Shown: positions 1,695 to 21,212 of the stretch, one piece after another
Layout of the letters: each line of letters opens with the position of its first letter
Numbering within the stretch: position 1 is the stretch's first letter
NCBI GenBank assembly: GCA_038127595.1
Contig: JAYPIC010000030.1
Location: 1 to 21,212 of the forward strand
Length of the DNA stretch: 21,212 bases
Direction: 5' to 3'
Origin: a bacterium
Lineage (GTDB): Bacteria > Fidelibacterota > Marinisomatia > Marinisomatales > UBA1611
Position numbers and translations under genes: made by a program
Notes under the pieces: generated by a model
Databases searched by the model: none
Told to the model about the DNA's origin: nothing
The model's input: the letters and a program-made list of their open reading frames with translations, nothing else

Positions 1695-1772
1695 AATTAA
1701 TTCTTTAATTCATCATATTCTCGATCATAATAATTTATTATTTTTCAATGTAAATTATTTTAAGATATCTTT

Positions 1773-4679: not shown

Positions 4680-4680
4680 C

Positions 4681-6189
4681 ATGAAAAAAGTAGTCATAAT
4701 ATTATCGATTATTTCTTTTTTAATTGGGCAAACGAATCCCATTGATATAGCAACTACTGGTGCGAACAAGTTAAGAATGCATGGGCAGTTAAATATTTTT
4801 CAGAATCCTGCAACATTGGGTCATTCGTTAGGCCAAATAAAAATAGACTCATCGTACACTGAAGATTCTTTAAATGATTTTAATGAAAATTTAGAAAAGG
4901 CAGAAGATCTTGAAGATGCAGTTGAGGATAGTGTAGATAATGAATTCTCTGAGTTCGATGATAATCAAAGCGATCTTACTGATACTTTATCTTTAAAAAT
5001 AGAAGAAGTTACTGCTTATTCAGATTCTATAATTGCTGATTCAGTTCAGAGTAAATCTAGTTTCAGCATGAACCTTTTTAGTGTATCACTTGGATTAGGA
5101 AGTGGGTCGATCACTCCAGATTGGATCAATAATCAATTATTTGGAGGCAGAGACCTTAGAAATGCAGATCAAAGAAAATCTTTTTTAAAAGGCATATCAA
5201 AAGATATTAATGTCCAGGTTCCACTTTATTCTAGTCTGCCATTGATCAATTTTAGTTTTGGCTCAAACATTATTAGTTTAGGACAAGTAGTAAGTTACAC
5301 TTCTGTAAATATTCCAAAAGATCTAGCACAGGTTCCATTTGTTGGGTTAGAAAAAGATGAAGAGTTAAATATTAACTCTTTGAGTATAGAGCACATTTCA
5401 TATCTACCAGTATCGTACTCTAAGGGTTTTGCACTTAAGCCAGGTTTAATTCCTTTTGGAAATAAAAGTTATGCTGGCGTAAGAGCAAGTCTTCTTATTG
5501 GATTAACAGAGGTACATACCAAGAAAGTTGAAGGAATTGTTAAGGGTACTGAGACAAATACGATAATGGATGCTGATATAGAAATTGGCTCCTCATTGCC
5601 AGTTTCAATCGATGATTCCATGCCAGCAGGATCTATTCCCATTGGCCTTGGAATTGACCTTGGTGTAATAACTGAAATAGATGAAAAACTATCTATTGGC
5701 TTGAGCTTAGATAATTTATTGGCCTCATTTAATTGGGATGGTGCAACTATTTACTCTGCTAGAGCCCAAGGCGAAATAGAGCCTGATGAAATTACTGAGG
5801 CAGATTCCTTATCTGATTTATTATCTCAGTCTGAGTTAAAAGAAAGTTCGAGCTATAAAACTAGTTTGCCTACTTCAATGAATTTAAGTGGTACGTATAA
5901 AGCAGATGATTGGGTTACGTTGGATGCAAACATTAGGATTGACATTACAGATAGTTATTGGGGTAGTAATAAACCCCTTTTTTCAATTAGCTCAGAATTT
6001 TTTCCATCTACCAAAGCACCAATTTACTTAGGGATGTCTTTTGGAGGAGAAAATAGTTTTGTTTGGGGCACTGGAATTAGTTTAAAAATGGGTTCAGTTA
6101 TCTTTGATGTCAGTGGCGGCCAAATGGGTGGTTTATTTAATGATGCTACTGGAATGCAATTTGGATTTGGATTAAGAATCCAAAAGTAA
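4681..6189 (+). CDS. Outer-membrane beta-barrel protein, DUF5723 / TraF / FadL-like superfamily
   Basis: ATG at 4681 (MKKVVIILSIISFLIG-Q signal peptide) is preferred over GTG 4672. Early IFQNPATLG motif, GLGIDLG..., LSIGLSLDNL, LPTSMNLSG and alternating amphipathic strands ending GMQFGFGLRI. It starts 1 nt after the lipoprotein stop. Confidence 0.75.
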   Translation: MKKVVIILSIISFLIGQTNPIDIATTGANKLRMHGQLNIFQNPATLGHSLGQIKIDSSYTEDSLNDFNENLEKAEDLEDAVEDSVDNEFSEFDDNQSDLTDTLSLKIEEVTAYSDSIIADSVQSKSSFSMNLFSVSLGLGSGSITPDWINNQLFGGRDLRNADQRKSFLKGISKDINVQVPLYSSLPLINFSFGSNIISLGQVVSYTSVNIPKDLAQVPFVGLEKDEELNINSLSIEHISYLPVSYSKGFALKPGLIPFGNKSYAGVRASLLIGLTEVHTKKVEGIVKGTETNTIMDADIEIGSSLPVSIDDSMPAGSIPIGLGIDLGVITEIDEKLSIGLSLDNLLASFNWDGATIYSARAQGEIEPDEITEADSLSDLLSQSELKESSSYKTSLPTSMNLSGTYKADDWVTLDANIRIDITDSYWGSNKPLFSISSEFFPSTKAPIYLGMSFGGENSFVWGTGISLKMGSVIFDVSGGQMGGLFNDATGMQFGFGLRIQK

Positions 6190-6193
6190 AAAT

Positions 6194-6652
6194 TTATTTT
6201 GGGGCGTAAGCCTTAGCCCACTTTGATTCAGGAGCAATCGCAATAAGTTCTTTTTCTTTTGCTCTTGCAGTTGTTTCATCACCAAGCTTACGATAGATCT
6301 GAATCATGTAATGTCTAACTTCGGGAATCTTAGCATGGTTTTTATCTTTCTTTTCTAATCTACTAAGCGTTTTCATGAGCTTTCCCAAAGCCGATTGAAG
6401 CTCCATTTTATTAGGACCTTTCATAGACTTTCTGTAGTAAAGATGGTGTAGAGCTTCATCCTCAGCTTCAGCACCACGAACACCAGCCACTGTTACAACT
6501 TGTTCAACTTCGCCCTCTACTTCATTGATCTCTTCAATCTCTTCCCAGACGGTAGTATCCCATAGATCATCTAAATTGACGTCTTCATCCTCATCTTGTG
6601 CGAGGAGAAATGAAAAGAAGACAATAGGTAATATATAATAGAACTTTTTCAT
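6194..6652 (-). CDS. Small exported protein: signal peptide, acidic N-terminal half with VAGVRGA motif, C-terminal TPR-like helix pair
   Basis: 152 aa with signal MKKFYYILPIVFFSFLLA-Q. The C-terminus PEVRHYMIQIYRKLGDETTARAKEKELIAIAPESKWA resembles the last TPR of CpoB/BamD-type proteins. It is the last gene of the minus-strand run. Confidence 0.75.
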   Translation of the reverse strand: MKKFYYILPIVFFSFLLAQDEDEDVNLDDLWDTTVWEEIEEINEVEGEVEQVVTVAGVRGAEAEDEALHHLYYRKSMKGPNKMELQSALGKLMKTLSRLEKKDKNHAKIPEVRHYMIQIYRKLGDETTARAKEKELIAIAPESKWAKAYAPK

Positions 6653-6680
6653 GTTTTCAATATTACGACATTAGGCATTA

Positions 6681-9419
6681 TTAATCAAATTTTTTGTATT
6701 TGGAAGGTTTTTCACCCATACTTTCTATGAAACTTACTTGACCAACTAATTCGGGACTTTTTAGCTTAACTTCTTCAAAAATTTCAAATGCCTTTTCATA
6801 GTTTCTTATACGATATAAAGCTACTGCAAGATTGATTTTATATTCTCCATTATCAGGATCTTTCTCAATTGCTTTTTTGAAATAATCAACCGCCATCGCA
6901 TTATTTCCTATTTGTGCAAAGGTTATTCCAACTGCATTATCACTCTTTGCTCTTCTCGCTCTATAGGATGCACGTTGTACTGCTTCAGGTTCTAATTTTG
7001 GAGCTGATTCTTTTAGCTCATTTAATCCTTTGGAAGATTCTGCATCTAGATCGGCTTCAAGATCAGCAGATAAGCTTATTGTATTTGAACTAGCAATAGG
7101 GCCTACTGAGGCTTTTGCAGCACCTAATATATCCTCTAGCTTACCAGAAAATGAAGGAGCTATTTTTACCACATCATCATATGTTTGTTTTGCTAGTCCT
7201 TTATTGCCAAGCATGAATTGCGAAATAGCAATATTTAACATAAATCCTGGGTGGTTAGCTTGCTGTTCAAGGGCTTTATTATAAAACTCAATAGACTTTT
7301 CGTATTCTTCTTGTTTTGTATAACAAACACCTAACGTATTTAATGCATCAGGAAAATTTGGTGTTATGCTCATTGCTGTATTGAGATTGTCAATAGCACT
7401 TTGATATCTTCCAAATTCCATATATAAAACAGCAACATCATAATAATCATCTGCAGTTTCTAATTTCCCCTCGATCCCTTTTGCAACTACTTGATCGAGC
7501 CATTTTATATATTGTCTAATGTCTTCTTCCAAGAGTTCACTGACACCAGTAGGGTCTGGGATGTATACCTCTTCTGGTGTAATTGAACCTGGTAGATACT
7601 TCGCCATTGCTTTGGTCATACTTATTTCGTTTACAAATTGGTCTGCTTTCATTTGGTTATATTTTAGAGCGCCTTGCTTCCAAGCACTAAAAAACGGCTT
7701 GCCAACTAGTGTGGCTTCAACTGGTATCCAAACTTTGCCATCTAAAACTGCAACTTCATTTCTATCTAAAAATAATCTATCTACATCATCTGGGTCTACA
7801 CCACTGTCAAACATTAAAAATACATGGCCCTCGCCAGGTTTAAATACGTCCAACCACATGGTCTCAATTCCAATATTATTTAAAAGAGTGCCATATAAGG
7901 TAGCTAGGTCATCGCAGTCCCCAATTTTATCATCTAATAGCTCCCATGGGTATTTTACAGTATCAAATGCTGATTTATCATCAGAGATTTGTAAAAATGG
8001 TGTAGAAGGATCGACATTATATACTAAACCAAATGAGCCGAGAGCATCATATAGTATGATAGCTCTTCCTAAATTAGTTTTTCCAAAATATTTTTTTAAT
8101 ACTTCAGAATAAGCTTGGATGTTAGTTCTTGCAAATTTATCTACAACTACATCTTGGGTAGTGAAATAAGAAGCGATCATTTCAGGGTCACTCCATGTCA
8201 ATTTTCCTTTTCCTAGCACATAGGAAGATTCTAATTTTTTCTGAGCAAGTTTTTCTTCTCCATCTTGCTTGTAAGCAACCTTTATATCAGGTTGAACCAA
8301 ATTGTCGAATGAAGCTTTTGCTGATGTTAAAACATCAGATGAAAATGAGACTCCTAAATTATATGTTTCATCTGACTTAGGAGGTAGTGTAATTGATTCT
8401 GTATGTGGATTTTCCATCATAGTTGGTATATAAAAGGAAACATCTACAGGGAGCTCTGAATCAGATATGTTTTTAATGTTCGCTTTTACAAATGGACTCC
8501 CTTCATAATATCTATGAAGAGATCTAAAGATTGGGTTATGATTTATGGATGCTGAGTTAATACTTACTACCGCTGGGCTTAATTGCAGTGATAAAGAGTA
8601 TCTATATGTCGGTTCAAGGTAGGGGTGAGATTCATATCCATATTCAAATACAAGACTTTTAAATTTCAAAGTAATACCAAAAGAAGGGATTCTGAGTTTT
8701 TCTTCTCCATTAAGGTCTTGTTGGAACCCGGCTCTAAAACCAATACGGTTTTTAATAAAGTATTCTCCACCAACATGAACCCTATCATCATCTAAGTCCA
8801 TCGCCATTGTTAGACCATCTATTGGAAAGTAGGCTATTCCTAGTTTAAACGCTTGTCCAAGTAGTTTTTCGTCAACTTTGTTTTGCTTGTAAGTTACGTT
8901 TGTTCCTCCAAGGTCATAGACTCCCAAGCCAAAACGAATTTTTTTGTGTGGAGATATTAATAAACCTAGGTCGTACCCAATGCCTGTAGATTTTCCATAG
9001 GATGTCCCATCAAGACCCATATCTCTAGATAAATATTTGAAAGTCCCTCCTATGGAAACTAGTTTAAATGGTTGGTATCCGATTGAAAAATTGAGTTTGT
9101 TTTCGCTATAGCTTAGTTCTTGATCATCAAATCCAATATTGGCCCAGTCAAAACCAATTGCAATACGATCACCAAAAGGCCATACAATTCCTGTATATGA
9201 ATGTGTAATATCCATTGCGTAAAGATCTGCATAGCTAGAGGTAAACTCTTTTCTTCGCAATCGAGGTAGTCCAGCTGGATTCCAAGTAATTGTATTTCCA
9301 TCATCAGCTACAGCTATGAAAGCACCGCCCATACCTAGTGGTCTAGTTCCAACAAAAAGTTGATCCTGTGAAATAAGAAAAGAGCTAACAATCAATATAT
9401 ATAGAATTAATTTTTTCAT
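6681..9419 (-). CDS. Fusion protein: PorV/PorQ/UPF0164-like beta-barrel + transglutaminase-like cysteine domain + TPR repeats
   Basis: Signal peptide, then GTRPLGMGGAFIAVADD..WNPAGL and barrel strands to ~aa 280 (YRYSLSLQL). Catalytic-type motifs GDCDD (Cys502), GHVF (His532) and WIPVEAT (Glu568). About 5 TPRs, e.g. ALNTLGVCY..YEKSIEFYNKALE and AVDYFKKAIEKDP. Confidence 0.85.
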   Translation of the reverse strand: MKKLILYILIVSSFLISQDQLFVGTRPLGMGGAFIAVADDGNTITWNPAGLPRLRRKEFTSSYADLYAMDITHSYTGIVWPFGDRIAIGFDWANIGFDDQELSYSENKLNFSIGYQPFKLVSIGGTFKYLSRDMGLDGTSYGKSTGIGYDLGLLISPHKKIRFGLGVYDLGGTNVTYKQNKVDEKLLGQAFKLGIAYFPIDGLTMAMDLDDDRVHVGGEYFIKNRIGFRAGFQQDLNGEEKLRIPSFGITLKFKSLVFEYGYESHPYLEPTYRYSLSLQLSPAVVSINSASINHNPIFRSLHRYYEGSPFVKANIKNISDSELPVDVSFYIPTMMENPHTESITLPPKSDETYNLGVSFSSDVLTSAKASFDNLVQPDIKVAYKQDGEEKLAQKKLESSYVLGKGKLTWSDPEMIASYFTTQDVVVDKFARTNIQAYSEVLKKYFGKTNLGRAIILYDALGSFGLVYNVDPSTPFLQISDDKSAFDTVKYPWELLDDKIGDCDDLATLYGTLLNNIGIETMWLDVFKPGEGHVFLMFDSGVDPDDVDRLFLDRNEVAVLDGKVWIPVEATLVGKPFFSAWKQGALKYNQMKADQFVNEISMTKAMAKYLPGSITPEEVYIPDPTGVSELLEEDIRQYIKWLDQVVAKGIEGKLETADDYYDVAVLYMEFGRYQSAIDNLNTAMSITPNFPDALNTLGVCYTKQEEYEKSIEFYNKALEQQANHPGFMLNIAISQFMLGNKGLAKQTYDDVVKIAPSFSGKLEDILGAAKASVGPIASSNTISLSADLEADLDAESSKGLNELKESAPKLEPEAVQRASYRARRAKSDNAVGITFAQIGNNAMAVDYFKKAIEKDPDNGEYKINLAVALYRIRNYEKAFEIFEEVKLKSPELVGQVSFIESMGEKPSKYKKFD

Positions 9420-12400
9420 CGGTTTAGAACTCCTACTGTAGTTCTAAGTATCGATTCAGAAGACTCAAGTGTTACAATATATAATCCACTCGGTACAATG
9501 CTCCCGTCAAAATCTTTTCCATCCCATACGATTACATTTTTACCTGGCCCCAAGGACTTTTCTGGTATTATTGTTCTTTTAATTTTTCCTGCAAGGTTAA
9601 ATATTCTTGCAGTAACATTATCTGAACTAGATAAATCAAATAAAATATTTGTATGAGGAAATTCAAAAACAGAACCAGCTGGAGAAAAAATTCTAGGTTG
9701 GCACGTAATTATATCAGCATTGACTGAGTCTACTTGGAACAAGCTATCCGATTTAAATGCAGCATATATGCCTAATTCTGATAATTCAGATTGTAAATAT
9801 GGAATGTTATTTATTGTAATAATTGTCCCACCAAGTGGATCAATGTCTCCTGTTGTATTATTTACTTTGCCAATATGAAGGTGCTGATCTTTTAAGTCAT
9901 CTGCTACAAAACTATCGGGAATAGCAATCCGTAGTACGGTTGGTTTTTGTAGATTTATTTCATAAGGAGATATTGCATAAAAATCAGATATAGAATTTGT
10001 GTCTAATGAAATGAGATTAGCTATAGGATCAATTGAAACTGATATATCCTCATTAACAGCATTTTGTGGAAATAAAATTGAGACCTTACCATCAGAGCTT
10101 ATTACACTTCCTCCTGCTTGGGATATAATTTTTTCTGGTGTTTTAAAAAATATTTCACTTTTCATAATATTTCCGCGCAAATCTTGTGCGCTTGAAATAT
10201 TTAGCTTTATTGCTTTTCCTACATATTCATCAGGAAGGCTTAATAACCCAGTCCACACTGTAGCGCTAAAACTTTGTTTTTCTACGAGAAGAGTATCGTT
10301 AATATTATCTCCATCAATATCGTTCATATCCGGATGCATAGCATAGATGACTGGCTCAGCATTCAAAGAGTTATTCATTTCAAATTCTTCTTTGAAATTC
10401 ACAATGATAATTATTTGGCCACCCACTCCATAGTTTACTTGTATTTCATCCACAGTAGGTGGAGTTTGATCAATGTAAAAATAATCCCAATCAGACCAAT
10501 CTGAGAATGATAAGCTATGGTCAACTGATCTAACTCGCCATTGGTATCTACCTTCAGGCAGGCTATTAATAATATGAGAACTCCCAGATCTTAGCCCCAT
10601 CTTACCAGTACCATAATTACCTGAAATGATAGAATGTACATTCCCAGATAGGTTATAATTTTGATCCTCTCCCATTTGCAAATGGTATTTCAGTGCTTCA
10701 TCAGAAGTTTTTCCCTGCTCGGTACTATTGTTAGCATCAATTCCTCCTTGCCAACTAATTTGGACAGAATCAATATTTACATTGCTCATTAGCATAATAG
10801 GTTTTGTCGGCGGGGTATTAGAATTTGTAAAACCTTCTAGGTTTTCATAGACTCTTGTGATCAACTCTTTTTCTGCCGTCTCTCCAGTAACTAGAAGATC
10901 GAGGTCTCCATCGTTATCATAATCACCCCACTGAGTAGATGATAGCCCGACACTATCAATCATGTACAAGGATGAATCATAAATAAATACACCTTGATCA
11001 TTTTGTTGGTAAATATTAGTAATAGGGTTAGTGTATTCTTCTAATCCTTGATCAGTTGTTGATGTCGCTGTATAACCGCTAGTAACAAGATCTAAATCTC
11101 CATCATTATCATAATCACCCCAATCTAAACTAGCATATGTTGCACCTTGTAGTGTTTGATGTAAACTAAATTCGTTTATTGAGTTATTGCCATATTCATT
11201 GGTATAAATATTGGTGTGCATTTCAGTTCCATTAAGATGAGCAACGGCGACATCATCAAACCCATCATTGTTATGATCTCCAACAGAAATTGCATGAAGT
11301 GTTGAAGGAATTTCAAATGGCTCATCTGAAGACTTTATTAGTTTCCCCATTCCATCATTTATATACATATGAGAAACGCCATTTAATTCTAATCTTCCAA
11401 GTGTTAGAAGGTCTGTATAGTTATCTCCATTAATATCTATCCATGTTAAAGCACAAGGAAAGAGCGGGATTAAATCAGTTTGAATAGTATCTCTTTTTAG
11501 TATCCCATTGTTATTTTTAAAAATAGTTAAATAATTAGTATTGTCGAAAATACTTATTCCTCCACTTACTAAGTCTAGGTCACCATCATTATCATAATCC
11601 GCCCAATCATGATTGTACTGGCCACCCCAGTATCCATCTGTTACTGATAACTGGTTTTCATCATCATCTAATATGTAAGTACCATCTTCCCATTTATATA
11701 ATAAAAGAGCCGTAAAAGTTGAAAAATTCAAAGTAGCCAACCCTGACATGGATATATCTAAGAAACCATCATTATTATAATCAACAAAGCTTAAGTGGCC
11801 ACCATAAACATTTGCCATTCGAGGTTGCAAGTTATTTACATTTAATATTCCATTCTCGTTAAGGAAAATTTGTGTTTTACTTGATCCAGTGTAGAGGTTC
11901 CCTGTAATAGCTAGGTCAAGCAAATTATCATTATTAATATCACTCCATCTTGATATCCCATATGAGTATCCTGGAATTGATTGGAAGGATTTCACTAGCC
12001 TTGGAATAAATAATTCTTTTTCATTTGACCATTCAGAAACCACACCTGACGGGTCAATTGATTGAACTTTCCAAATATAATTCCCCCAAGGAATGCCGGT
12101 AAATTCTCTAATTAATTTTGTGCCAGTATTAGAATTATTATATGAGGTCGCACTTGAAATAAGAGCTCTAGAATCATCTTCTGTTATAGATCTTGAGATA
12201 GAAAGATTATATCTTAAAGATTGATCTGATCCAATGTCATCTTGGCCATCTCCCCAATTAAATATAACTCGATTGCTAATTGCAAATGATTCAAGGACGG
12301 TTGGCGGTGTGGGCTTTATATTATTATTTTCAAATTTATTTAAGAAAACTGATACAAAAGAGCTATCATTGTTTCCAATCTCAAATGAACCAGATGCAAC

Positions 12401-13699
12401 AATGTCGGGTTTTAGATCTTGGTCAATATCAACAAATGATAATGTTCTTGCACCATCAATTGTTTGAAGTTCTGAGAAGCCAAGGTTGCCATCACCATCA
12501 TTTAAAAATATTTTACCCTCTAGCGCCCAAACACTATCTCTTGGGTTTAATTGGAGAACGGTAGTATCAGCTGCTAATACGTCACCTTGCTCACTTATTT
12601 CCAGCGTATCAATAATATAAAAATTATCATAATTAATGGTATGCTCAACAGCTCCGCTAATTGCAATATCCTTAAAGCCATCCATGTTGACATCAATTGC
12701 TTTTATCGAACCAAAAATTGTACCAAAATTTATTTGTTGGCTCGCTAATCTAAAATTACCAGTAGGTTCATTTATATAAATGAGTGTTTTTAACGTTGAA
12801 TCTATTGGACTATAACCAGAAATAATTAGGTCAGAATCCGCATCATTATCCAAGTCAGAAAAACAAATTGATGTTCCTTTAAGAGGCTCAATTTCTTGGT
12901 TCGTATCTTCTCCTAAACGACCTACTGGATCATTTAAGTATAATTTTGTAACTCCAGATTCTACGGTTATTTGCTGTCCACTAGTAAGAAGGTCGAGGTC
13001 ACCATCTAGATCAACATCGTCCCAAGCAATATCTCCATTTCTTAGGTCCGGCATCACAACAGAATTATCAAATTCCCATGCAACATTACCATTAAAGTCT
13101 GATTGATTTAATAGTAATTTATTTGTGATTGTACCCCTACTATTTTTTAGCCCCATCCAAAAAATATCAAGGTCACCATCTAAATCAACATCACCCCATC
13201 TTAGAGCGCTTTCACCTAAATTTTCAATGAAGTCACTGTCTAGATAATTATTTGTAGAAAGCGAGCCCCCAAGGTTTTTTGTCATAAACATAAATTCTGC
13301 ACCGTGAGCAAGTACATCTATTAGTCCATCTTTATCATAATCTCCTAGTGCAAGTTTTCCATCTCCGCCAATATATCTTGAAGAATGATTACTTGGAATA
13401 TATGTGAAATATCCATTCAAAATATCCATCTGAATAGTATCTATTTCACCAGAACTTGAAACACTATACGTATTTAAAAAGAGACGCTCTTGATTTCCAA
13501 TTTTATTATAGCCATATAGAATTATATCATTGATTCCATCGTTATTAAGGTCGGCAACTCCAATATCTGAAGCTATAATATTTTGAAGTACAGTACTGCG
13601 CTGTTCATCTAGTTCAAAACTATTTTGCCCAAATGTGCTATGGTAAAAAAGAAATGTTAAGATGATTATCTTAAACAAAAAGTTAATCATTAGGGTCAT
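9416..13699 (-). CDS. Large secreted FG-GAP/VCBS repeat protein (two propellers, FN3-like, ZU5-like) with a C-terminal FlgD / T9SS type-B-like sorting domain; probable adhesin or surface sensor
   Basis: Signal peptide ..STFG-Q. Fourteen DxDxDGxxD-type motifs and two FN3-like blocks (Y.W.V.S.D.S..S.WS). C-terminus reads QPRIFSPAGS..IFNLAGK..WDGKDFDGSIVPSGLYIV. The start could be M4 (13690). Confidence 0.9.
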   Translation of the reverse strand: MTLMINFLFKIIILTFLFYHSTFGQNSFELDEQRSTVLQNIIASDIGVADLNNDGINDIILYGYNKIGNQERLFLNTYSVSSSGEIDTIQMDILNGYFTYIPSNHSSRYIGGDGKLALGDYDKDGLIDVLAHGAEFMFMTKNLGGSLSTNNYLDSDFIENLGESALRWGDVDLDGDLDIFWMGLKNSRGTITNKLLLNQSDFNGNVAWEFDNSVVMPDLRNGDIAWDDVDLDGDLDLLTSGQQITVESGVTKLYLNDPVGRLGEDTNQEIEPLKGTSICFSDLDNDADSDLIISGYSPIDSTLKTLIYINEPTGNFRLASQQINFGTIFGSIKAIDVNMDGFKDIAISGAVEHTINYDNFYIIDTLEISEQGDVLAADTTVLQLNPRDSVWALEGKIFLNDGDGNLGFSELQTIDGARTLSFVDIDQDLKPDIVASGSFEIGNNDSSFVSVFLNKFENNNIKPTPPTVLESFAISNRVIFNWGDGQDDIGSDQSLRYNLSISRSITEDDSRALISSATSYNNSNTGTKLIREFTGIPWGNYIWKVQSIDPSGVVSEWSNEKELFIPRLVKSFQSIPGYSYGISRWSDINNDNLLDLAITGNLYTGSSKTQIFLNENGILNVNNLQPRMANVYGGHLSFVDYNNDGFLDISMSGLATLNFSTFTALLLYKWEDGTYILDDDENQLSVTDGYWGGQYNHDWADYDNDGDLDLVSGGISIFDNTNYLTIFKNNNGILKRDTIQTDLIPLFPCALTWIDINGDNYTDLLTLGRLELNGVSHMYINDGMGKLIKSSDEPFEIPSTLHAISVGDHNNDGFDDVAVAHLNGTEMHTNIYTNEYGNNSINEFSLHQTLQGATYASLDWGDYDNDGDLDLVTSGYTATSTTDQGLEEYTNPITNIYQQNDQGVFIYDSSLYMIDSVGLSSTQWGDYDNDGDLDLLVTGETAEKELITRVYENLEGFTNSNTPPTKPIMLMSNVNIDSVQISWQGGIDANNSTEQGKTSDEALKYHLQMGEDQNYNLSGNVHSIISGNYGTGKMGLRSGSSHIINSLPEGRYQWRVRSVDHSLSFSDWSDWDYFYIDQTPPTVDEIQVNYGVGGQIIIIVNFKEEFEMNNSLNAEPVIYAMHPDMNDIDGDNINDTLLVEKQSFSATVWTGLLSLPDEYVGKAIKLNISSAQDLRGNIMKSEIFFKTPEKIISQAGGSVISSDGKVSILFPQNAVNEDISVSIDPIANLISLDTNSISDFYAISPYEINLQKPTVLRIAIPDSFVADDLKDQHLHIGKVNNTTGDIDPLGGTIITINNIPYLQSELSELGIYAAFKSDSLFQVDSVNADIITCQPRIFSPAGSVFEFPHTNILFDLSSSDNVTARIFNLAGKIKRTIIPEKSLGPGKNVIVWDGKDFDGSIVPSGLYIVTLESSESILRTTVGVLNR
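10900..13560 (-). repeat. 14 FG-GAP/VCBS Ca-binding repeats in two groups of 7
   Basis: Group 1: DLNNDGIND, DYDKDGLID, DVDLDGDLD x2, DLDNDADSD, DVNMDGFKD, DIDQDLKPD. Group 2: DINNDNLLD, DYNNDGFLD, DYDNDGDLD, DINGDNYTD, DHNNDGFDD, DYDNDGDLD x2. Confidence 0.85.
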
Positions 13700-13703
13700 T
13701 TAA

Positions 13704-16607
13704 TTATTTAGATGTTTGGGTCCAAACACCGTCCCAATCATCACCAGGAGGGTTTGATTTAAAATTTTGACAGCGAGGTATATAAACTCTGCTTGGGTTT
13801 GTTTTTCTTCCAGGGAACATCTCCTCAAGCTCATCAGCCGCTTGAAACGCCTCAATCGCTTTATCCCAGTCTTGTTTAAAATAATATTCTAAACCTTCAT
13901 GGAAAATGGGGAGTATCTTTTTATAAATTTCAGGTTCTTGGTCTTTTTCAGAAATGAGCTCAAAAACCTTGACAGGCTCGGTTTTACCCATAACTCGAAC
14001 AAAATCAAGCGCTCTTACAACGATTTGATCTTTAACTGCTTCATATGTACTATCAGCTATTTGAATATATACACCATACTGCTTTGCTGAACTTTCTAGC
14101 CTTGCTGCAAGATTTACTGTATCACCCATCATTGTGTAGTTCATTCTAGATTCAGAGCCCATATTACCAGTTACCATTTTACCAGTGTTAATGCCAATTC
14201 TATTTTGCATGTTATGTACTATTTCAGGCCATCTATCGCCCTCCTGCTGCCATTGACCTCTAAGAACAGCTAACCTCTCCTGCATTTTTATTGCTGTTCT
14301 GCATGCCATTAGCTCATGGTTTTTTAAGTCTAATGGAGCTCCATAAAATGCTACAATTGCATCACCAATGTATTTATCTAGTGTACCATTATTTTCCATG
14401 AGTATATCCGTCATTTCTGTTAGATAATCATTTAAAAGGCTGACTAGATCGCTAGCTGTTAATTTTTCTGAGAACGCTGAGAAACTTTGAATATCTGTAA
14501 AAAAAGCAGTGTGGTAACCCTCTTCACCGCCAAGTTCCGGTTCTTTACCACTCTCGTACATTTCATCAATGAGCTCAGGAGAAATATAAGTACCAAAAGA
14601 CGATTTAAGGAATTGTTTATTCTTTTCTTCTTGAATGTAGTTGTACACAGTTATGCCTAAGTACCCTAAACCTATAGTTGCGATGGGAGCGAATAGATCT
14701 AGCCAAAAATAATAATTAGTAAAAGCCCAAAAAGCAGTAAAGATATATACTAATATAAGTGCACCAACGGCAGCACCGCCAATTGCGGGGCTAAGTCTTT
14801 GAATTCCAAATGCTAATAATAGTGCTAAAGCTAAAAGAATGAATGAGACTACAGCTTTAGATGTCCTCGTTATAAAAATATCAGATAAAATTGTATTTAA
14901 AGCATTAGCGTGGAGGCCCACCATTGGATAACTACCATTAAATGGTTGTGAACCTAAATCAGATGTGCCTGGAGCGGTTAAACCATAAAGTAGTTTTTTC
15001 TTTTGAAACTCAAATGGAACAATCCTTCGAGCTGTATTTTTTTTAACATTTCCAACAACAATTCGGTCTTTATTTTGCCAGAAAAATAATGGTCTTTGCT
15101 CATCAACAATATTGTGTTTATTTAGATTTTGAACGATTAAAAATGTTCTCTCAAGTTGTGAAATTTCAACTAAAGACCTTTTTAATATTTTTATATAGCC
15201 TTCATCTTTAGATGTTTTTAATGAAGATCTAACATCTTCCTTAAGCTTATTAAAACTACTTATGCTATAATCTTTTATAGGGGCTTCAAAGGCAAGTTTT
15301 TTATTAGTTAAAAAATCATCAAGGCTAAGACTAGGGTTAACTAGTAAATCCCTGGCAATAATGTTGGCATTCTTTATTTCATTGTACATTTTAATTTGAG
15401 GATACTTAGCTTTTCTTTTTATACTTGTAAAAAACTGTTCCCCAGTATTTAGGCCATTGGTTTTAGAAATGTATGACTCCATTTGTGTTGCCATGCCTAG
15501 TTGTCTAATCGTTTTTATCACATCTTTTTTGCTTGCAAATTTTTCTTCAAACGAAGCTTTCATTAGAGCTTTTAAGTTTTTTGCACCTTGTAAACTTGGA
15601 TCAGAGTAAGCTAGTTTTTTTACCTCGGCTAATACATAATTATCATACTCACTTTCTCTGAATTTTTTTAGAACCCAATAAGGGTAGTGTATGAAATCAA
15701 AATTACCATCCGAATCTTCCCATTGCCCAGCCCAGTTGACCTGCATAAGGCCTCTTTTATCTATTGGTATTTCTATAACTGATCTACCATATTCATCTGC
15801 AGAGGGGAGAGGGATAGATAAATATTTTCCCGGTATTATTTCAACATCATTAAAACTTACTCCGTAGTGGTCAAGTGCTAATGCCAAACCTGCATTTGGA
15901 AAAAGCTTGTCTTCATATTTTCCAACTAGAGGATATCTTCTACTAATGCCATCTGGTTCGGATATAGTTTGAAAAAAGTATGTACCTTTGCTTGATTTGA
16001 TTAATTCGTCAACTGGAGGATCAATATCATAAAAGTCATTAATGGTCTCAAATTCAGAAGGGTCAATTTTTCTAAAAAATTTGCCGTCTTCAAGAAGTTG
16101 TAATCTAACGTCTTTTTCTTCGGTTCTTTTTCTGACTGCCATTTTTTTCGCTGGCTGAGGGAAAAATGTATATCCAAAATATATATTCCCTGCTTCTTCT
16201 GCAGCCTTTGCCAAATCAATATCAGGATCTGGGAAAAGGTTTTCAATCTCTTTAATTGTTAATACGCTATCATTAATTGTTGAGACATTATCATATTCAA
16301 GCTTGCGCTCTTGTCGTTCGATAAAAAAGATATCAAATGCCAAGGCGTCCATTCCATGCTCTTTTGCAGCCATAACAGAAGGTATGTGTTTTTCCCTGCT
16401 CCATGGCCATCTGCCAATTTGTTGCAGACTTTTTGCATCCATATCGAGGGTGGCAATGTCTTGTCTAGTCTCAATTCTTCCACGATTTAAAAATCTCATA
16501 TCTAAGAGTTTGTTTTCTACTCCATCATAAAGCTCAAACCAAGTCAGAATAATAAAAACAACTGCGACTCCAAAAGAAATAAGTATATATGGATAATCTT
16601 TTTGCAT
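13704..16607 (-). CDS. CHASE2-domain membrane-bound class III adenylate cyclase
   Basis: N-terminal TM, then CHASE2 motifs ENKLLDMRF..RG, IGRWPWSR, FDIFF, PDGISRRYPL, GLTAPG..DL and HANALNTIL, then three TMs. Catalytic motifs FTDIQSFS (D705), DKYIGD (K745/D749), RIGINTG, YTMMGDTVNLAARLE (T825, N832, R836) and VRVMGK. Typical WDGVW..TSK tail. Confidence 0.95.
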   Translation of the reverse strand: MQKDYPYILISFGVAVVFIILTWFELYDGVENKLLDMRFLNRGRIETRQDIATLDMDAKSLQQIGRWPWSREKHIPSVMAAKEHGMDALAFDIFFIERQERKLEYDNVSTINDSVLTIKEIENLFPDPDIDLAKAAEEAGNIYFGYTFFPQPAKKMAVRKRTEEKDVRLQLLEDGKFFRKIDPSEFETINDFYDIDPPVDELIKSSKGTYFFQTISEPDGISRRYPLVGKYEDKLFPNAGLALALDHYGVSFNDVEIIPGKYLSIPLPSADEYGRSVIEIPIDKRGLMQVNWAGQWEDSDGNFDFIHYPYWVLKKFRESEYDNYVLAEVKKLAYSDPSLQGAKNLKALMKASFEEKFASKKDVIKTIRQLGMATQMESYISKTNGLNTGEQFFTSIKRKAKYPQIKMYNEIKNANIIARDLLVNPSLSLDDFLTNKKLAFEAPIKDYSISSFNKLKEDVRSSLKTSKDEGYIKILKRSLVEISQLERTFLIVQNLNKHNIVDEQRPLFFWQNKDRIVVGNVKKNTARRIVPFEFQKKKLLYGLTAPGTSDLGSQPFNGSYPMVGLHANALNTILSDIFITRTSKAVVSFILLALALLLAFGIQRLSPAIGGAAVGALILVYIFTAFWAFTNYYFWLDLFAPIATIGLGYLGITVYNYIQEEKNKQFLKSSFGTYISPELIDEMYESGKEPELGGEEGYHTAFFTDIQSFSAFSEKLTASDLVSLLNDYLTEMTDILMENNGTLDKYIGDAIVAFYGAPLDLKNHELMACRTAIKMQERLAVLRGQWQQEGDRWPEIVHNMQNRIGINTGKMVTGNMGSESRMNYTMMGDTVNLAARLESSAKQYGVYIQIADSTYEAVKDQIVVRALDFVRVMGKTEPVKVFELISEKDQEPEIYKKILPIFHEGLEYYFKQDWDKAIEAFQAADELEEMFPGRKTNPSRVYIPRCQNFKSNPPGDDWDGVWTQTSK

Positions 16608-16618
16608 GGCTATTTTAA

Positions 16619-17938
16619 TTAATCATATACAGTAGGAGTAATAAACATTAATAGTTCTCTTTGTTCTTTTTGAACTGAGGTGGTTTTGAAAAAATAACCT
16701 ACAACAGGTATAGCACTAAGTATTGGTACGTATTTTTTATTTCTTATGATGTTATCGGCAATTAGGCCACCAATGATCACGGTTTCTCCATTATAAACAG
16801 AAACTTGTGTGGTAACTGTTCTTTTGGTAGACCTAGGCTTATCTGTTGATATTTCTGCCGCAGATAAAAGAGCCTCTACTGTAGCATCGACTAATAATGT
16901 TATAATATTATTTTCATTAATTCTAGGAGTAACTTGTAGTTTAATTCCAATATCCTTTTCTTGGACAGTATTTGCAGCTCCATACAGTCCCAGTCCAGGT
17001 ATGCCAGTCGCCGCATTACCTTGTGCGTTTGTGTTTGCATTATTACCGCCTGAGTTTAATCCCTCGATGTATACTGTTGTTGATACTTCAGTTGTAGCTT
17101 GATGATTATCGAGAGTAGTTACTTGAGGGCTGGATAATAGTTTACTTCTTCCTCTAGCTTGCATGACCTTTAGTGCTGAAGTTAATTGTGAGGGGTTAAG
17201 TGTTGCTATTGTGACATTATTTAAATTTATAGGGAAATTAACAGTGTCATTTGGACTGCCACCTAGTTGCACTGGACTATTTGTCCAATCAACACCGTAC
17301 GATTTAGACGTGTCAAGTTGAGTTTCAATGAATTTAACAGCAATATTTATATTTTTTATTGGCTTATCCAGTTGTTTTACCATACTAAGTACTCGAGGTA
17401 TGTTTTCTTGAACATCTGAAACAATAGCCATATTTGGAGGCCCTGTTTGTCCTGCCATAGAGGCTACTGGCAAGAATGATTGGACAGAACCTCGAGTTGT
17501 TAAAATAGTAGATAGTGGAGCTTGCAGATCATTTGAATTAATGTATTTTAATCTAATTACAACAGACTCAAGTTCACCAATTAGTTGAGTGTCTAAGTCT
17601 TTTACAATAATGATATTATCCTGAACAAAATAACTATAGTTATTTGGTTTTAAGATTGCATCTAATGCTGCTTTTACAGTGACGTTTTCCAGGTTTGCGG
17701 TAATTGTATCTTCAATATTAGGGCTAATTACAATATTAAGGCCTGTAAGCTCTCCAATCATCGTCAAGACATTTCGAATGTCAGACTCTTTTAAATTAAT
17801 GGACATTTTATCCATTAGTTTATATCGCTCACTTTCCTGATCGCTTTGAGTTATTTTAGAGTATGCAGGATCACTCCACTGAGACATAAGCATTGCTTGG
17901 AATAAAATAAGAACTAGTATAAAATGTTTTTTACTCAT
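16619..17938 (-). CDS. pilQ: Secretin, PilQ/GspD family, short form
   Basis: STN/N0 domain (SINLKESDIRNVL..GLNIVI) and one N domain (VIRLKYINSNDL). Core motifs LLSSPQVTTLDN, DIGIKLQVTPRI, GETVIIGGLI, VPILSAIPVVGYFF and RELLMFITP. Occupies the last position of a pilMNOP-like run. Confidence 0.9.
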   Translation of the reverse strand: MSKKHFILVLILFQAMLMSQWSDPAYSKITQSDQESERYKLMDKMSINLKESDIRNVLTMIGELTGLNIVISPNIEDTITANLENVTVKAALDAILKPNNYSYFVQDNIIIVKDLDTQLIGELESVVIRLKYINSNDLQAPLSTILTTRGSVQSFLPVASMAGQTGPPNMAIVSDVQENIPRVLSMVKQLDKPIKNINIAVKFIETQLDTSKSYGVDWTNSPVQLGGSPNDTVNFPINLNNVTIATLNPSQLTSALKVMQARGRSKLLSSPQVTTLDNHQATTEVSTTVYIEGLNSGGNNANTNAQGNAATGIPGLGLYGAANTVQEKDIGIKLQVTPRINENNIITLLVDATVEALLSAAEISTDKPRSTKRTVTTQVSVYNGETVIIGGLIADNIIRNKKYVPILSAIPVVGYFFKTTSVQKEQRELLMFITPTVYD

Positions 17939-18490
17939 TTAGTTTCCAACATTTCTTGTAACCGTTGTGCTACCGTTTCTGAAAGTAATTTGATCATTTT
18001 CAATTCGGTCAATAAGGATATCGCTATTTAAGTATTCACCTTGCCTGAATCTTCTATTATCAATTAATACAATTTTTTCATTATTGAACTCTGCCACAAT
18101 TTCTACATTGTATCTCTCTAAGTTCTTTAATAGAATGGATTTTTCTATATCTTTTTCTTCTTCAGAAGTAATAGAAGCTCCATCTATATCAGCTTCACTA
18201 GATGTAGCAACAGCATTAAATGGGTTTCTCTGCCAACCAACTAACTGAGATGATAAGGATGATCTTTTTCGGGAACTAACTGGAGAAATAGAATTATTTA
18301 ATTTTGGAGTATTATTAGTTTGAGTAGAATTTTGAGAGACCACTTTTTTAGGCCTTTGAATTTTAGGCTTTCTTGCTGGCTTTGAACTACTGGAATCGGA
18401 GGACTTACTAAATTGATCAAAAATCATGATTGCCAATGAAATTCCTAATCCAATTAAAAGATTTCTAAGTCTAGGGGTCATGTCGACCAT
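17939..18490 (-). CDS. PilP/GspB-like bitopic inner-membrane protein
   Basis: N-terminal TM (LLIGLGISLAIMIF), S/K/P-rich linker, RNPF motif (RDPF in PilP) and a C-terminal beta domain (VLIDNRRFRQGEYL..LIDRIENDQITF). It sits between pilO and the secretin, and its stop abuts the secretin ATG. Confidence 0.65.
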   Translation of the reverse strand: MVDMTPRLRNLLIGLGISLAIMIFDQFSKSSDSSSSKPARKPKIQRPKKVVSQNSTQTNNTPKLNNSISPVSSRKRSSLSSQLVGWQRNPFNAVATSSEADIDGASITSEEEKDIEKSILLKNLERYNVEIVAEFNNEKIVLIDNRRFRQGEYLNSDILIDRIENDQITFRNGSTTVTRNVGN

Positions 18491-18570
18491 TAATTTAAAC
18501 TAAAACAATGTTTAACTAACGGAAAATATTTATAAAACTTGCATAAAAAAATGGTTATAATTTTAACTAT

Positions 18571-19395
18571 TTACAGATTATTCAAACTTTTTTGTAAAAG
18601 TGAAATAGCAAGATTTTCATCGATTTCCTTACCATTATTTTCTTTAATGTAATTAATGATTTTTACTATATCAATTAAACTTGAAGCGCCAGTAGCTTTA
18701 ATGGCGTTTGTTATAATATCTTCATCAGACATTTGATAAGAACCGTTTACTGGTTTTGCAGTATTTTCACTATTTGGGGTGGTGCTGGCAAAACCTTGAT
18801 TGCTTTGCATAACAGCGGTGCTAGTAGAACTATTTTTTGTGTATATGTAAGAAATAAAAGAAATTTTTTGTTCCCCTTCTAAATATGGGTTCTGTGATAT
18901 TTGAATATTGCTTATGGTTAGGTAATAATTTGAATAAGCTAATTGGTCTAAAAAATTACCAAAATCGATGAAACTCCCTCTAAGTTCTACATCGATAGGA
19001 TACTTCTCTACTAGAATGGTTTCTTGAGTTTCAGGGTTGAGTATTTGTTTTTCATCAAGAGGAGCAAGAGAGGGATTAAAGTTATCCACTGCTAGTTTAT
19101 TTTTTTCTAACAAACTAAAAAGCATTTTTGTAACATTATCAAATTGTGCATCTGTAGGGATTTTTTGGATCAGAGATGATAGATCGTCTTTCAATTCTTT
19201 CCATTCTTTTTCGATTGCAGGGAATTTTGTTTGTATCTGAGAGTATTTATTTTTTTCGTTTTTTAATTGATTATAGCTTGTATTCATTTTATCTAATGAC
19301 TTATTCAGCTCACTAAAATACATAAAATACCACCCTCCGCATGAAAGCAAGACGAATGCTATGATACCAATGAAAAGATTTTTTTGTTTATCCAT
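18571..19395 (-). CDS. pilO: PilO-family type IV pilus alignment protein with a C-terminal extension
   Basis: N-terminal TM ending GGWYFMY, a coiled coil, then KIPTDAQFD and KYPIDVELRGSFIDFGNFLDQL..YLTISNIQI, a typical PilO ferredoxin-like core. Confidence 0.85.
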   Translation of the reverse strand: MDKQKNLFIGIIAFVLLSCGGWYFMYFSELNKSLDKMNTSYNQLKNEKNKYSQIQTKFPAIEKEWKELKDDLSSLIQKIPTDAQFDNVTKMLFSLLEKNKLAVDNFNPSLAPLDEKQILNPETQETILVEKYPIDVELRGSFIDFGNFLDQLAYSNYYLTISNIQISQNPYLEGEQKISFISYIYTKNSSTSTAVMQSNQGFASTTPNSENTAKPVNGSYQMSDEDIITNAIKATGASSLIDIVKIINYIKENNGKEIDENLAISLLQKSLNNL

Positions 19396-19400
19396 AGGTG

Positions 19401-21212
19401 TTAAATCTCACACTTTAATTCAAAGGTCATGTTATCAATGTCCATTCCACTAGTAGTTTTTTTATTTATTACATCAATTTTCTTAAACAGGCCTGAATTT
19501 TCTACCTGAGTAATAAAGTTAGAGAAGTATCTTTCTTTCAATGCTGGATTTGCTGTTATTGCCCCAGTAACTTTCGCAAAATCTTTTTCTTCGTCAACTA
19601 TTGTAATAACTTTTTCGAGAGAATTCCCGACATGAATCCAATCTCCACGCTCCCAACCTCTTTGGAATGAGATCATATCCAATGTTATTTCTTTTGGGGT
19701 ATTATAACTGAAAAACCTCATAATACTTATTGAAAGATTAGAAAGTTTTGATTCTTTTAATAAAACGTCTAGCTGGGCGATAATAGTATTTTTTTCTGAA
19801 GAAACTTTTTCATACTGGCTTTTTATTGGCGCAATACTTGTTGCTTGAGATTTCATGGCGTTTAACTTTGTTTTCATCTCATCATGATTAATGGTTGTCC
19901 AACCTGAGAGTGATATCATGCCTATGAAGATTGCCGCAGCTAATGGGATGCTAAATTTATTTCCTAGTCTAAATTTCTCTGAATCTTTGAAAACGTCAGG
20001 GAGGAGGCTAATAGATTTATCAAGATTTAAAGCAGCTCCTACAGCTGTAGTAAGCGCTGTTTTGGAAAATTCAATATTTTCTCTTTCCTCCTCATCAGGG
20101 AAGAAGGCAATATTTTTAAAGGGATCTAAAAAGTTAACATCAACGTCCAGTTGATTGTGCAGGTATTCATCCAAGAATAATACTTCTTCAGCGCAGCCGC
20201 TTAGGAAAATTTCAGAAATGTTATCTACAGGGAAAGATTGAGCCATGCTGTTTAGAGCCCGTTCTATTTCTTGATCCCAGCTTTCGATCACAGGGCGCAT
20301 TGCATCGTCCTGAGGTTTTTTCTGTTTATTAGTAGAATTATCTTTTATGTCTGATTTTAAAATAGAAGGAGGGACTCTACAATAATCTCTTTTATCCCAC
20401 TTTGCTTTTGAAGCAGTTGAACGATATTTCCATGCATCTGTAAGATTTTGGATACCAAGATCTAATGGCACGATTGCATCAGGGTAGCCTTGATTATAGC
20501 CTAGTATAAAACTTTCGATTTCTCCGACATGTAATATCAAAATAATATCATGTTTTTTGCCCGGATAATTCCATCGAAATGAATTAAGCACTGTTTGAGC
20601 AGCTGGTGGCCATAATCGTATATCCCATTTTTTCTCACCTAAAGTTTGTGCAGGAGAGTCCATGTAATCAGCATTTGCAACCCCAATAATATTTTTGCCT
20701 TGCTCCAGTTCAATTGAATCAAAAATAATATCATCTGAATTAAATGGTAAATTCTTTTTTGCATCATAATCTATTATCATTTTTCGTTCTTTTTTGTTTT
20801 CTGGAGGAACGATAACAGTCTTTAATAAACTAGATGTATTATTAATTGTAAAAGAAATGGGTGCTCCTGAATGAAGACTTTTGATAACCCCTCTAGGTAT
20901 TTTAGATCCTTTTTTTTCCAGTTTTGAGGTTAATTGTTCATAAGCTTTACCAATGGCTACAGAAAAACCGGTTGGATTTCTTTTTGGGTCTAATTTTGCT
21001 TTGGTTGCTGAGAAAATATCGGACCCAATTAGTGATTTTATTCCGCCTTTATCTTGAATTAAAGCAGAATATATGTGACCTTGGTCCATTGCTATACCTA
21101 AAAGCAGTTTTTCTTTCTTAAAAGGGGGTGAAGAAATATTTGATGGATAGGTACCAATACTTCTTTTTAATCTTTTTTTCTTTCGTTGGTACCATTTACT
21201 TGATTCTTCTTC
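19401..21212 (-). CDS. pilM: PilM-PilN fusion protein (5' end outside the window)
   Basis: The frame has no stop from 21212 to the ATG at 21089 (41 extra codons ending LLLGIA). PilM-like motifs: AKKNLPF..DIIFD, IFLSG..LDEYL..LDPF and TTAVGAAL. These are followed by ISLLP (PilN INLLP), a TM, a coiled coil and a PilN-like core (TPKEITLDMISF..VTG..VENSGLF..FELKC). Confidence 0.85.
   Translation of the reverse strand, partial: EEESSKWYQRKKKRLKRSIGTYPSNISSPPFKKEKLLLGIAMDQGHIYSALIQDKGGIKSLIGSDIFSATKAKLDPKRNPTGFSVAIGKAYEQLTSKLEKKGSKIPRGVIKSLHSGAPISFTINNTSSLLKTVIVPPENKKERKMIIDYDAKKNLPFNSDDIIFDSIELEQGKNIIGVANADYMDSPAQTLGEKKWDIRLWPPAAQTVLNSFRWNYPGKKHDIILILHVGEIESFILGYNQGYPDAIVPLDLGIQNLTDAWKYRSTASKAKWDKRDYCRVPPSILKSDIKDNSTNKQKKPQDDAMRPVIESWDQEIERALNSMAQSFPVDNISEIFLSGCAEEVLFLDEYLHNQLDVDVNFLDPFKNIAFFPDEEERENIEFSKTALTTAVGAALNLDKSISLLPDVFKDSEKFRLGNKFSIPLAAAIFIGMISLSGWTTINHDEMKTKLNAMKSQATSIAPIKSQYEKVSSEKNTIIAQLDVLLKESKLSNLSISIMRFFSYNTPKEITLDMISFQRGWERGDWIHVGNSLEKVITIVDEEKDFAKVTGAITANPALKERYFSNFITQVENSGLFKKIDVINKKTTSGMDIDNMTFELKCEI

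Follow-up and report, generated by a model that had tools for sequence, protein, structure and literature searches.

Results

The locus

In this work we have analysed a window of 21,212 nucleotides (the whole stretch of DNA studied) from a marine SAR406 bacterium of the family UBA1611. Four open reading frames lie on its minus strand, at 13704-16607 (967 aa), 9416-13699 (1427 aa), 6681-9419 (912 aa) and 6194-6652 (152 aa), and we found again both these co-oriented genes and the junctions of 4 nt, an ATGA overlap (-4 nt) and 28 nt which the first-pass annotation had described. The boundary which it had drawn, 6194..16607, is too narrow: the cyclase gene starts 11 nt after a secretin gene, with further pilus genes upstream on the same strand. 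The features are:

17939..21212, minus strand: PilP-like gene, pilO and the 3' part of an ExeA-PilM-PilN fusion (context)
16619..17938, minus strand: PilQ-like secretin, 11 nt upstream of the cyclase (context)
13704..16607, minus strand: CHASE2 adenylate cyclase, 967 aa; transmembrane helix 8-26, periplasmic CHASE2 with a large insertion, transmembrane helices near 585-626, class III cyclase
9416..13699, minus strand: predicted surface protein, 1427 aa; FG-GAP repeats in two runs of 7 (50-424, 587-926), putative C-terminal FlgD-Ig/T9SS-type tail
8568..9368, minus strand: predicted beta-barrel of the PorV/PorQ family, residues 18-284 of the fusion protein (912 aa, gene 6681-9419)
7485..8567, minus strand: Ig-like and transglutaminase-fold cysteine-enzyme domain, fusion residues 285-645; codon of C502 at 7914-7916
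6681..7484, minus strand: C-terminal TPR region of the fusion protein (Pfam/NCBIfam)
6194..6652, minus strand: AGVRG protein, 152 aa; it has a likely signal peptide, a stretch of acidic residues, a helix with W-x-T-V-W, VAGVRGAEAED as an unstructured segment, and helical hairpins at the C-terminus
6473..6487, minus strand: AGVRG motif (residues 56-60 of the small protein), for which we propose cleavage and a role as ligand of CHASE2

The PilM/N, PilO, PilP-like and PilQ genes upstream of the cyclase were identified by Pfam/NCBIfam. In the source family the four genes form the end of a type IV pilus locus, which in relatives runs on into a pilin array. Scans for promoters and terminators gave counts at or below chance (60 vs 67.9 and 5 vs 8.1, respectively). 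Contigs from four RNA runs cover 30, 30, 30 and 26 of 30 bins, and since genes on both strands are covered and there is no silent control, this coverage is no evidence of expression or co-transcription.

The predicted proteins

The domain content earlier proposed for the cyclase, the surface protein and the barrel fusion is supported by Pfam/NCBIfam, weakly in the case of Transglut_core. The prediction of an inner-membrane CHASE2 cyclase agrees with a PF05226 match of 104.7 bits (cut-off 26.3), located between membrane helix 8-26 and helices 585-603 and 608-626, and with the retention of D705, K745, D749, T825, N832 and R836 in 66/66 cyclase sequences. We take D705 and D749 to be the metal-binding aspartates, K745 and T825 to specify ATP, and N832 and R836 to stabilize the transition state. 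CHASE2 sensors occur in 125 of 151 Marinisomatota genomes and also in rhizobia and Burkholderiales; a profile search found no solved CHASE2 structure, and the stimuli of CHASE2 are stated to be unknown in the accessible part of one report (PMC5192318). In the 96%-complete source genome no Crp was found, and the sole cNMP-binding protein is a TLC-transporter fusion.

Besides its propellers, the surface protein has FN3-like, Ig-like and ZU5-like parts, these three being read by eye. Its tail is of the QPRxFSP type and the only such tail found in the genome (1 vs 49 of the PNPFN type); it scores 25.1 bits with FlgD_ig (cut-off 27) and 19.1 with TIGR04183 (cut-off 23), and the TIGR04131 and type B models gave no match on it. 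SprA is present in the source genome, above the cut-off. Export signals of the proteins were judged by eye from the N-termini, with no predictor.

The barrel of the fusion protein scores 80.3 bits (whole protein) or 86 bits (barrel alone) against NF033709, both below the PorV equivalog cut-off of 90; this model matches 41/41 barrel homologues, and the barrel matches solved PorV (PDB 6h3i) with an E value of 2.2e-12. Assignment to PorP with a type B C-terminal domain was rejected, as the HMMs favour PorV and the PorP family matched just 4/41 homologues. In the enzyme domain, C502, H532 and E568 are invariant in 44/44 homologues, E568 being the putative third residue of a catalytic triad. The Transglut_core match is weak (16.7 bits, cut-off 23), the Ig-enzyme profile retrieved no significant PDB sequence, and Peptidase_C93 had no Pfam match among the window's 11 proteins, so that the likeness to LapG is one of fold only. 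The structure model (pLDDT 92.5) has transglutaminases as its top Foldseek matches, and aligns with proteases of the transglutaminase fold, among them BDI_1141 (136 aligned, Z 10.5, rmsd 3.0) and LapG (146 aligned, Z 8.7, rmsd 3.7), middling matches for which the tool warns that Z below 8 can reflect a common arrangement. From fold and Cys-His-acid residues we predict a transglutaminase-like cysteine enzyme.

The 152-aa AGVRG protein has no Pfam or NCBIfam match. Its model contains a confident C-terminal helical hairpin, which most resembles a TPR domain, though not significantly (E 0.08); the fold search returned nothing at E<=0.001. The first-pass annotation had called it a small exported TPR protein; its likely signal peptide was read by eye. 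G57 and R59 are at least 90% conserved in 37 homologues found by HMM, and the residues after the motif (AEAED...LYY) are conserved as strongly as the motif itself.

Conservation of the four genes

The four genes are a conserved module in several uncultured phyla. All four were present in 30/31 long loci from several phyla; the Ig-enzyme domain accompanies 72/73 AGVRG loci having at least 1.5 kb upstream, and the CHASE2 cyclase 67/80 AGVRG loci. The AGVRG protein and the enzyme domain mark the identical 19 of 251 Marinisomatota genomes. Co-occurrence had been proposed as a check on the module, and by this check the genes are not scattered. Could they nevertheless be envelope genes that are loosely clustered and share no function? 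Gene order does differ between lineages, and one gene stands apart in a few genomes (in two cases the small gene is away from the barrel), but the complete long loci and the identical presence pattern largely refute this reading, to which we give almost no credence. The four genes very probably form one functional unit. The genome scans were seeded with motif-containing patterns, and the conservation of the motif in the phage and genome sets is therefore partly selected.

Wherever the contig allows, the small gene directly precedes the cyclase in 62 loci of other phyla. No match to pilQ/O/MN was found in their flanks, many of the upstream ones stopping within the propeller gene. A link of the module to pili in every case was rejected.

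A motif recurring beside CHASE2 sensors

A neighbour carrying [AGS][AGS][VI][RK]G was found in 37 of 40 other CHASE2 cyclase loci, hand-picked from among 150 matches listed and representing about three orthologous groups, compared with 77/1250 background centres (6%); the pattern was written after a few of the 40 had been viewed. These 37 neighbours comprise 20 FecR proteins and 17 proteins with an HExxH site (SH3 and M48 peptidase by Pfam in 2/2 tested), and three loci had no motif neighbour. NsrA of Sinorhizobium meliloti, on which a study by Garnerone reportedly appeared in 2018, carries AAIRG-T in its own FecR domain. The V/I-R/K-G motif thus occurs in unrelated scaffolds (FecR including NsrA; SH3-M48), mostly beside a cutting device, and the residue following its glycine differs by scaffold: T, F or A.

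Eight further proteobacterial CHASE2 loci have a FecR neighbour in seven cases, with V-[RK]-G-T in 7/7; the strict five-residue pattern is met in just one of these seven, while the shorter core held. FecRs of the sigma-factor type read L-G-T in 3/3. In the source genome one FecR reads ASVKG-T, and none of its listed neighbours is a CHASE2 gene; R/K in the motif may be a structural feature of a single FecR subfamily. Cleavage of FoxR is said to have been described by Bastiaansen in 2015. Self-cleavage of FecR has been reported at its G-T bond (PMC13719327). The AGVRG protein reads G-A in place of the self-cleaving G-T, and therefore an enzyme would be needed.

Discussion

How might these four proteins work together? 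The module probably conveys a signal from the surface of the cell to cAMP. According to the model which we prefer, the propeller protein would dock by its tail on its own predicted PorV-family barrel; we propose this because the barrel matches PorV, the genome has SprA and the tail type is unique against 49 of the PNPFN type. An event at the surface would switch on the predicted periplasmic cysteine protease of the barrel protein. This protease would cleave the small protein at AGVRG; the freed peptide would be read by the CHASE2 domain, which would change the activity of the cyclase. We infer the order of this relay, every contact in it, the cleavage, the sign of regulation and pilus control as its output. 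That the small protein acts on CHASE2 through its motif seems probable to us; that it does so by way of cleavage by the fused enzyme is a matter of even chances, and the full path from surface signal through a cut at GVRG to CHASE2 and cAMP stands no higher.

It may be that the small protein is never cut and shuttles intact between the TPR/enzyme arm of the barrel protein and CHASE2, with the enzyme acting on another target, possibly inside-out as in LapD-LapG-LapA. The strong conservation of the residues after the motif would suit such a role, as would the appearance of LapG among the fold matches and the lack of the self-cleaving Thr in some FecR neighbours (three on plasmids, with no protease seen beside them). 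In two other scaffolds, however, the motif either coincides with a self-cleavage site or shares its chain with a protease, and the residue after its glycine varies between scaffolds, and we regard an intact shuttle as rather unlikely. More doubtful still is that the enzyme is a transpeptidase, which would cut after the motif glycine and attach the resulting N-terminal fragment to an amine of CHASE2, of a pilus component or of the cell wall. Its top Foldseek matches are transglutaminases, and the motif ends in R-G, as ubiquitin-type tails do; but no acceptor was identified, and to our knowledge neither FecR self-cleavage nor the M48 metalloproteases found beside the same motif are known to ligate.

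The nearest precedent for the module, and one already named in the first-pass annotation, is NsrA-CyaK. According to two reports (PMC13001267, PMC7529298), NsrA is an outer-membrane barrel acting upstream of the inner-membrane CHASE2 adenylate cyclases CyaK, CyaD1 and CyaD2. The nsrA and cyaK genes are adjacent, and here too a barrel is encoded with the CHASE2 cyclase; NsrA has AAIRG where the module has AGVRG. NsrA is one 1197-aa FecR-domain protein sensing a protein signal, whereas none of the four module proteins has a Pfam match to FecR. The module joins a predicted PorV-family barrel and a cysteine-enzyme domain in one chain, carries the motif on a TPR-like protein of its own and has a surface protein with propellers as a dedicated component; no Crp/Clr was found in the source genome (96% complete). 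Operons of a FecR with a CHASE2 histidine kinase, such as Burkholderia BiofilmReg (PMC5192318), likewise have an exported partner beside the sensor, and FecRs of such operons carry V-R/K-G-T; they differ in their kinase output, in a FecR scaffold with self-cleaving G-T and in having no barrel-enzyme fusion. The T9SS PorV shuttle and PorP with type B anchoring share with the module a barrel (here predicted to be of the PorV family) beside a protein with a C-terminal domain of putative sorting type, SprA being present in the genome; PorV and PorP are stand-alone barrels (PMC11611037), whereas the module's barrel has about 630 extra residues. The module also hints that a PorV-type barrel of the T9SS may serve in signalling.

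LapG is a soluble enzyme, controlled inside-out by c-di-GMP via LapD, which cuts a type I-secreted adhesin. Like LapG (BTLCP), the modelled module enzyme would be a cysteine enzyme of the periplasm with a transglutaminase fold, linked both to a nucleotide second messenger and to a large surface protein; unlike LapG it is part of a fusion and has no Peptidase_C93 match, and the window's 11 proteins gave no Pfam match to LapD or LapA partners. No description of the module or the motif was found in the literature covered, which takes in a minority of subscription journals. Since the module carries the shared five-residue motif on a small protein of its own, next to a candidate protease, the question of the CHASE2 ligand becomes testable, and the same question applies to the culturable NsrA-CyaK system.

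More questions are raised by the small gene on 104 viral contigs, found in a scan seeded with motif-containing patterns. The phage copies keep the motif and are without the last 25-30 residues. A quick tree of 105 columns suggests that phages took the gene from the source family. Among the 80 viral contigs examined, 68 have pilin-like genes and none has any of the other three module genes; CHASE2 and the enzyme domain were also not found in five phage records, which are only 45-72% complete. Are the small protein and the barrel then pilus accessories, for assembly or adhesin display, with the cyclase merely co-regulated? The company of pilins without a cyclase and the position of the module at the end of a pilus locus in UBA1611 would fit, but in the 62 loci from other phyla the small gene stands directly before the cyclase with no such pilus-gene matches, and we consider this explanation improbable. 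Prophages that encode pilus components (P-FimU, PMC12952977) similarly carry genes of the host pilus locus; the phages described here have, in addition, a gene other than a pilin that belongs to a predicted cAMP signalling module, which suggests that ocean phages manipulate a surface-sensing pathway of the host besides supplying pilins.

Perhaps CHASE2 domains in general act as receptors for a short peptide with V/I-R/K-G at its end, which proteolysis would release from interchangeable partners (a self-cleaving FecR, an SH3-M48 protein, or a TPR-like protein that a PorV-fused cysteine protease would cut), and perhaps marine phages bring the ligand protein in trimmed form, along with pilins, to take over the cAMP and pilus state of the host. 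We offer this wider proposal tentatively and believe it somewhat less likely to hold than to fail. Of the genes neighbouring the phage copies, one had been read as MshEN, which Pfam did not confirm, and a Popeye-type cNMP-binding gene lies nearby in 5 of the 80 phage loci.

Results

The window makes up contig C30 of a 2.0-Mb genome, and its proteins have homologues named Candidatus Marinimicrobia. The first-pass annotation had described four co-oriented reading frames with junctions of 4 nt, an ATGA overlap and 28 nt, and all of this was found on the minus strand. The frames encode a CHASE2 cyclase (967 aa), a propeller surface protein (1427 aa), a barrel–enzyme–TPR fusion (912 aa) and a small protein (152 aa) with AGVRG at residues 56-60. 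This module is preceded on its strand by pilM/N, pilO, a pilP-like gene and a secretin gene, whose end is separated from the cyclase start by 11 nt. Other features of the window are:

3-6189, plus strand: PNPFN-tail protein, 968-aa likely lipoprotein and DUF5723 barrel, converging on the small gene and separated from it by 4 nt
6194-6652, minus strand: small gene
19401-21212: first gene, encoding an ExeA-like ATPase–PilM–PilN fusion (also on host contig C65 and at loci L203 and L204)

The likely lipoprotein had no Pfam or NCBIfam match; together with the DUF5723 barrel it adjoins the module in two same-genus genomes only.

In the 967-aa protein, CHASE2 is joined by three predicted membrane helices and a class III cyclase domain. 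The six key residues of the cyclase do not vary across 66 sequences, and K745 and T825 among them point to ATP as the substrate. The 1427-aa protein carries FG-GAP repeats in two runs of seven and a FlgD-Ig-type tail scoring just below the curated cut-offs. This tail begins QPRIFSP and has no second example in the genome, where 49 tails are of the PNPFN type. SprA is encoded in the host genome; its matches on contig C83 are split over two open frames of 423 and 1601 aa (a split gene or an assembly error). The N-terminal barrel of the 912-aa protein matches solved PorV (E 2e-12), and all 41 of 41 barrel homologues match the PorV/PorQ family, the window's member slightly below the cut-off. Residues 285-645 have a confident predicted fold (pLDDT 92.5) consisting of an Ig-like domain and a core which, in the model, resembles transglutaminase-fold proteases (BDI_1141, Z 10.5; LapG, Z 8.7). 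C502, H532 and E568 of this enzyme domain are invariant among 44 non-redundant homologues, and TPRs lie C-terminal to it. Such a fold might also serve ligation, which we consider improbable. The 152-aa protein has 4119 homologues and is without any family match; its model places VAGVRGAEAED in a low-confidence coil, followed by helical hairpins.

The co-occurrence of the four genes also held beyond the host genome. A scan of GTDB contigs for the small protein confirmed 111 relatives, the best 80 of which were retained, and all four genes were present in 30 of 31 long loci among them; that they cluster by chance is extremely improbable. Within the same best 80 of 111, the enzyme domain was found in 72 of the 73 loci with at least 1.5 kb upstream and the CHASE2 cyclase in 67 of 80. 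These relatives come under the titles Latescibacterota, Gemmatimonadota, KSB1, Zixiibacteriota, Handelsmanbacteria and Marinimicrobia; one record each titled Planctomycetota and Enterobacterales may be mislabelled. At 20 barrel loci, the small gene follows the barrel in 17, the contig ends there in two, and in one genome the gene lies elsewhere. The small gene occurs in 19 of 251 Marinisomatota genomes, the same 19 that have the enzyme domain; these are not independent because 17 represent one family. Three assemblies (G012, G014, G021) hold two barrel-fusion copies each, by true duplication or mixed bins.

In two same-genus genomes, PilC, a long pilin array, ExeA–PilMN, PilO, PilP, PilQ and then the module form one co-oriented run, and host contig C65 carries the pilin array and breaks off in the start of ExeA. 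The pilus-accessory role that such runs might suggest seems to us quite unlikely: loci outside Marinimicrobia run in the order propeller, second FG-GAP gene (480-520 aa), barrel, small gene, cyclase and then housekeeping genes, and no pilQ/O/MN match was found in the flanks, many of which are short upstream. In genome G007 the ExeA–PilMN pilus locus contains around 20 pilin-like genes, with blocks that repeat, and host contig C44 has a second, separate type IV pilus-like set (pilM/N/O/P/Q, pilB, pilC; assigned by eye). At locus L023 (genome G022) the cyclase gene sits within the pilus run, in the pilO–pilP interval, and reads in two frames across ambiguous bases.

Crp was looked for in the host genome and not found. 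The only cNMP-binding protein found there, a TLC-transporter–cNMP-binding fusion (1045 aa, G000:C59:3117-6254), is a candidate cAMP effector. Popeye-type proteins, present in 17 of 54 family genomes, are absent from the host.

Discussion

Is AGVRG peculiar to this module? A FecR neighbour is annotated at 6 of 8 plasmid cyclase loci, including NsrA beside cyaK of Sinorhizobium meliloti, and the six read AAIRG-T, AGIRG-A, AGIRG-A, AVRG-T, AAIRG-T and GIRG-G. FecR self-cleavage is reported at G-T (PMC13719327). A second CHASE2 cyclase in the host genome lies two genes from a FecR with ASVKG-T. The pattern [AGS][AGS][VI][RK]G, composed after inspecting a few of the loci concerned, occurs in a neighbour within two genes at 37 of 40 other Marinisomatota CHASE2 loci (chosen by hand from 150 listed matches, about three orthologous groups), compared with 77 of 1250 background centres. 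These neighbours are FecR at 20 loci and of the SH3-M48 type (SH3 plus M48 peptidase by Pfam in both of two tested) at 17. A fresh set of eight proteobacterial loci with CHASE2 proteins of the kinase, EAL and cyclase types had a FecR neighbour in seven; the strict five-residue pattern is present in one of the seven, as exact AGVRG-T, and the core V-[RK]-G-T in all seven. FecRs flanked by a sigma factor and a TonB receptor have L-G-T in 3 of 3, and the listed neighbours of one motif-bearing FecR in the host genome include no CHASE2 gene. The FecR, SH3-M48 and small-protein data therefore indicate that three unrelated CHASE2-adjacent scaffolds share a basic-residue–Gly motif, and that a means of cleavage usually lies close by. 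The window's small protein reads G-A, and Thr-type self-cleavage is impossible; a cysteine enzyme is encoded next to its gene. A stand-alone 483-aa transglutaminase-like gene lies directly 5' of an SH3-M48-type CHASE2 cyclase (L231:5226-6677), and similar-sized genes directly precede several others.

We propose, at about an even chance, that the module performs outside-in signalling by proteolysis, from the surface to cAMP, the cut and all contacts being our conjecture. The propeller protein, docked through its tail, would engage the barrel, which would pass the signal to its enzyme domain; the enzyme would cut the small protein at GVRG, and CHASE2 would in turn change cAMP output. It is possible, though doubtful, that the small protein instead shuttles intact. 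As proposed, the module would work like the NsrA–CyaK pair (PMC13001267, PMC7529298). Unlike that pair, it shows no FecR match in any of its four proteins; its barrel is of another kind, it includes an enzyme, and the motif is on a separate protein. CHASE2–FecR pairing (PMC5192318), PorV/PorP roles (PMC11611037) and phage pilus proteins (PMC12952977) are already published. A literature search, with most subscription journals outside its coverage, found neither the module nor the shared motif described. The module is real and, as far as that search reaches, undescribed; it gives a lead on what CHASE2 binds that can be tested directly.

Relatives of the small protein are also encoded on 104 viral contigs. 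Pilin-like genes lie within 5 kb in 68 of the 80 loci retained. No other window protein has a match in any of the 80, where UvsX, ssb and baseplate genes are among the neighbours. The phage pilins match those of host contigs C65 and C76 at a median of 30-59%. Phage small proteins stop 61-67 residues past GVRG (bacterial median 95), and they group together (SH-aLRT 97) in a quick tree built from 93 of 175 rows, where they join the rows of the window's family (99). Searches of five partial phage genomes turned up neither CHASE2 nor the enzyme domain. The simplest role for the phage copy would be that of a mimic or decoy resetting pilus-linked signalling. A 216-aa cNMP-binding gene is present in 5 of 80 viral loci near the pilin cassette (L032:1800-2450, L046, L063, L068, L097); its product is a membrane protein, Popeye-type by Pfam in both of two tested, with relatives about 30% identical in those 17 of 54 family genomes. 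Other recurring neighbours (loci L031-L110; protein clusters C2, C3, C12, C15) are a 147-aa exported-looking protein (51 loci) and a TonB C-domain (34). A 218-aa protein in 14 loci has a start resembling MshEN, which a Pfam search did not confirm, and a 105-aa membrane protein in 16 shares about 55% identity with a host gene on contig C33.
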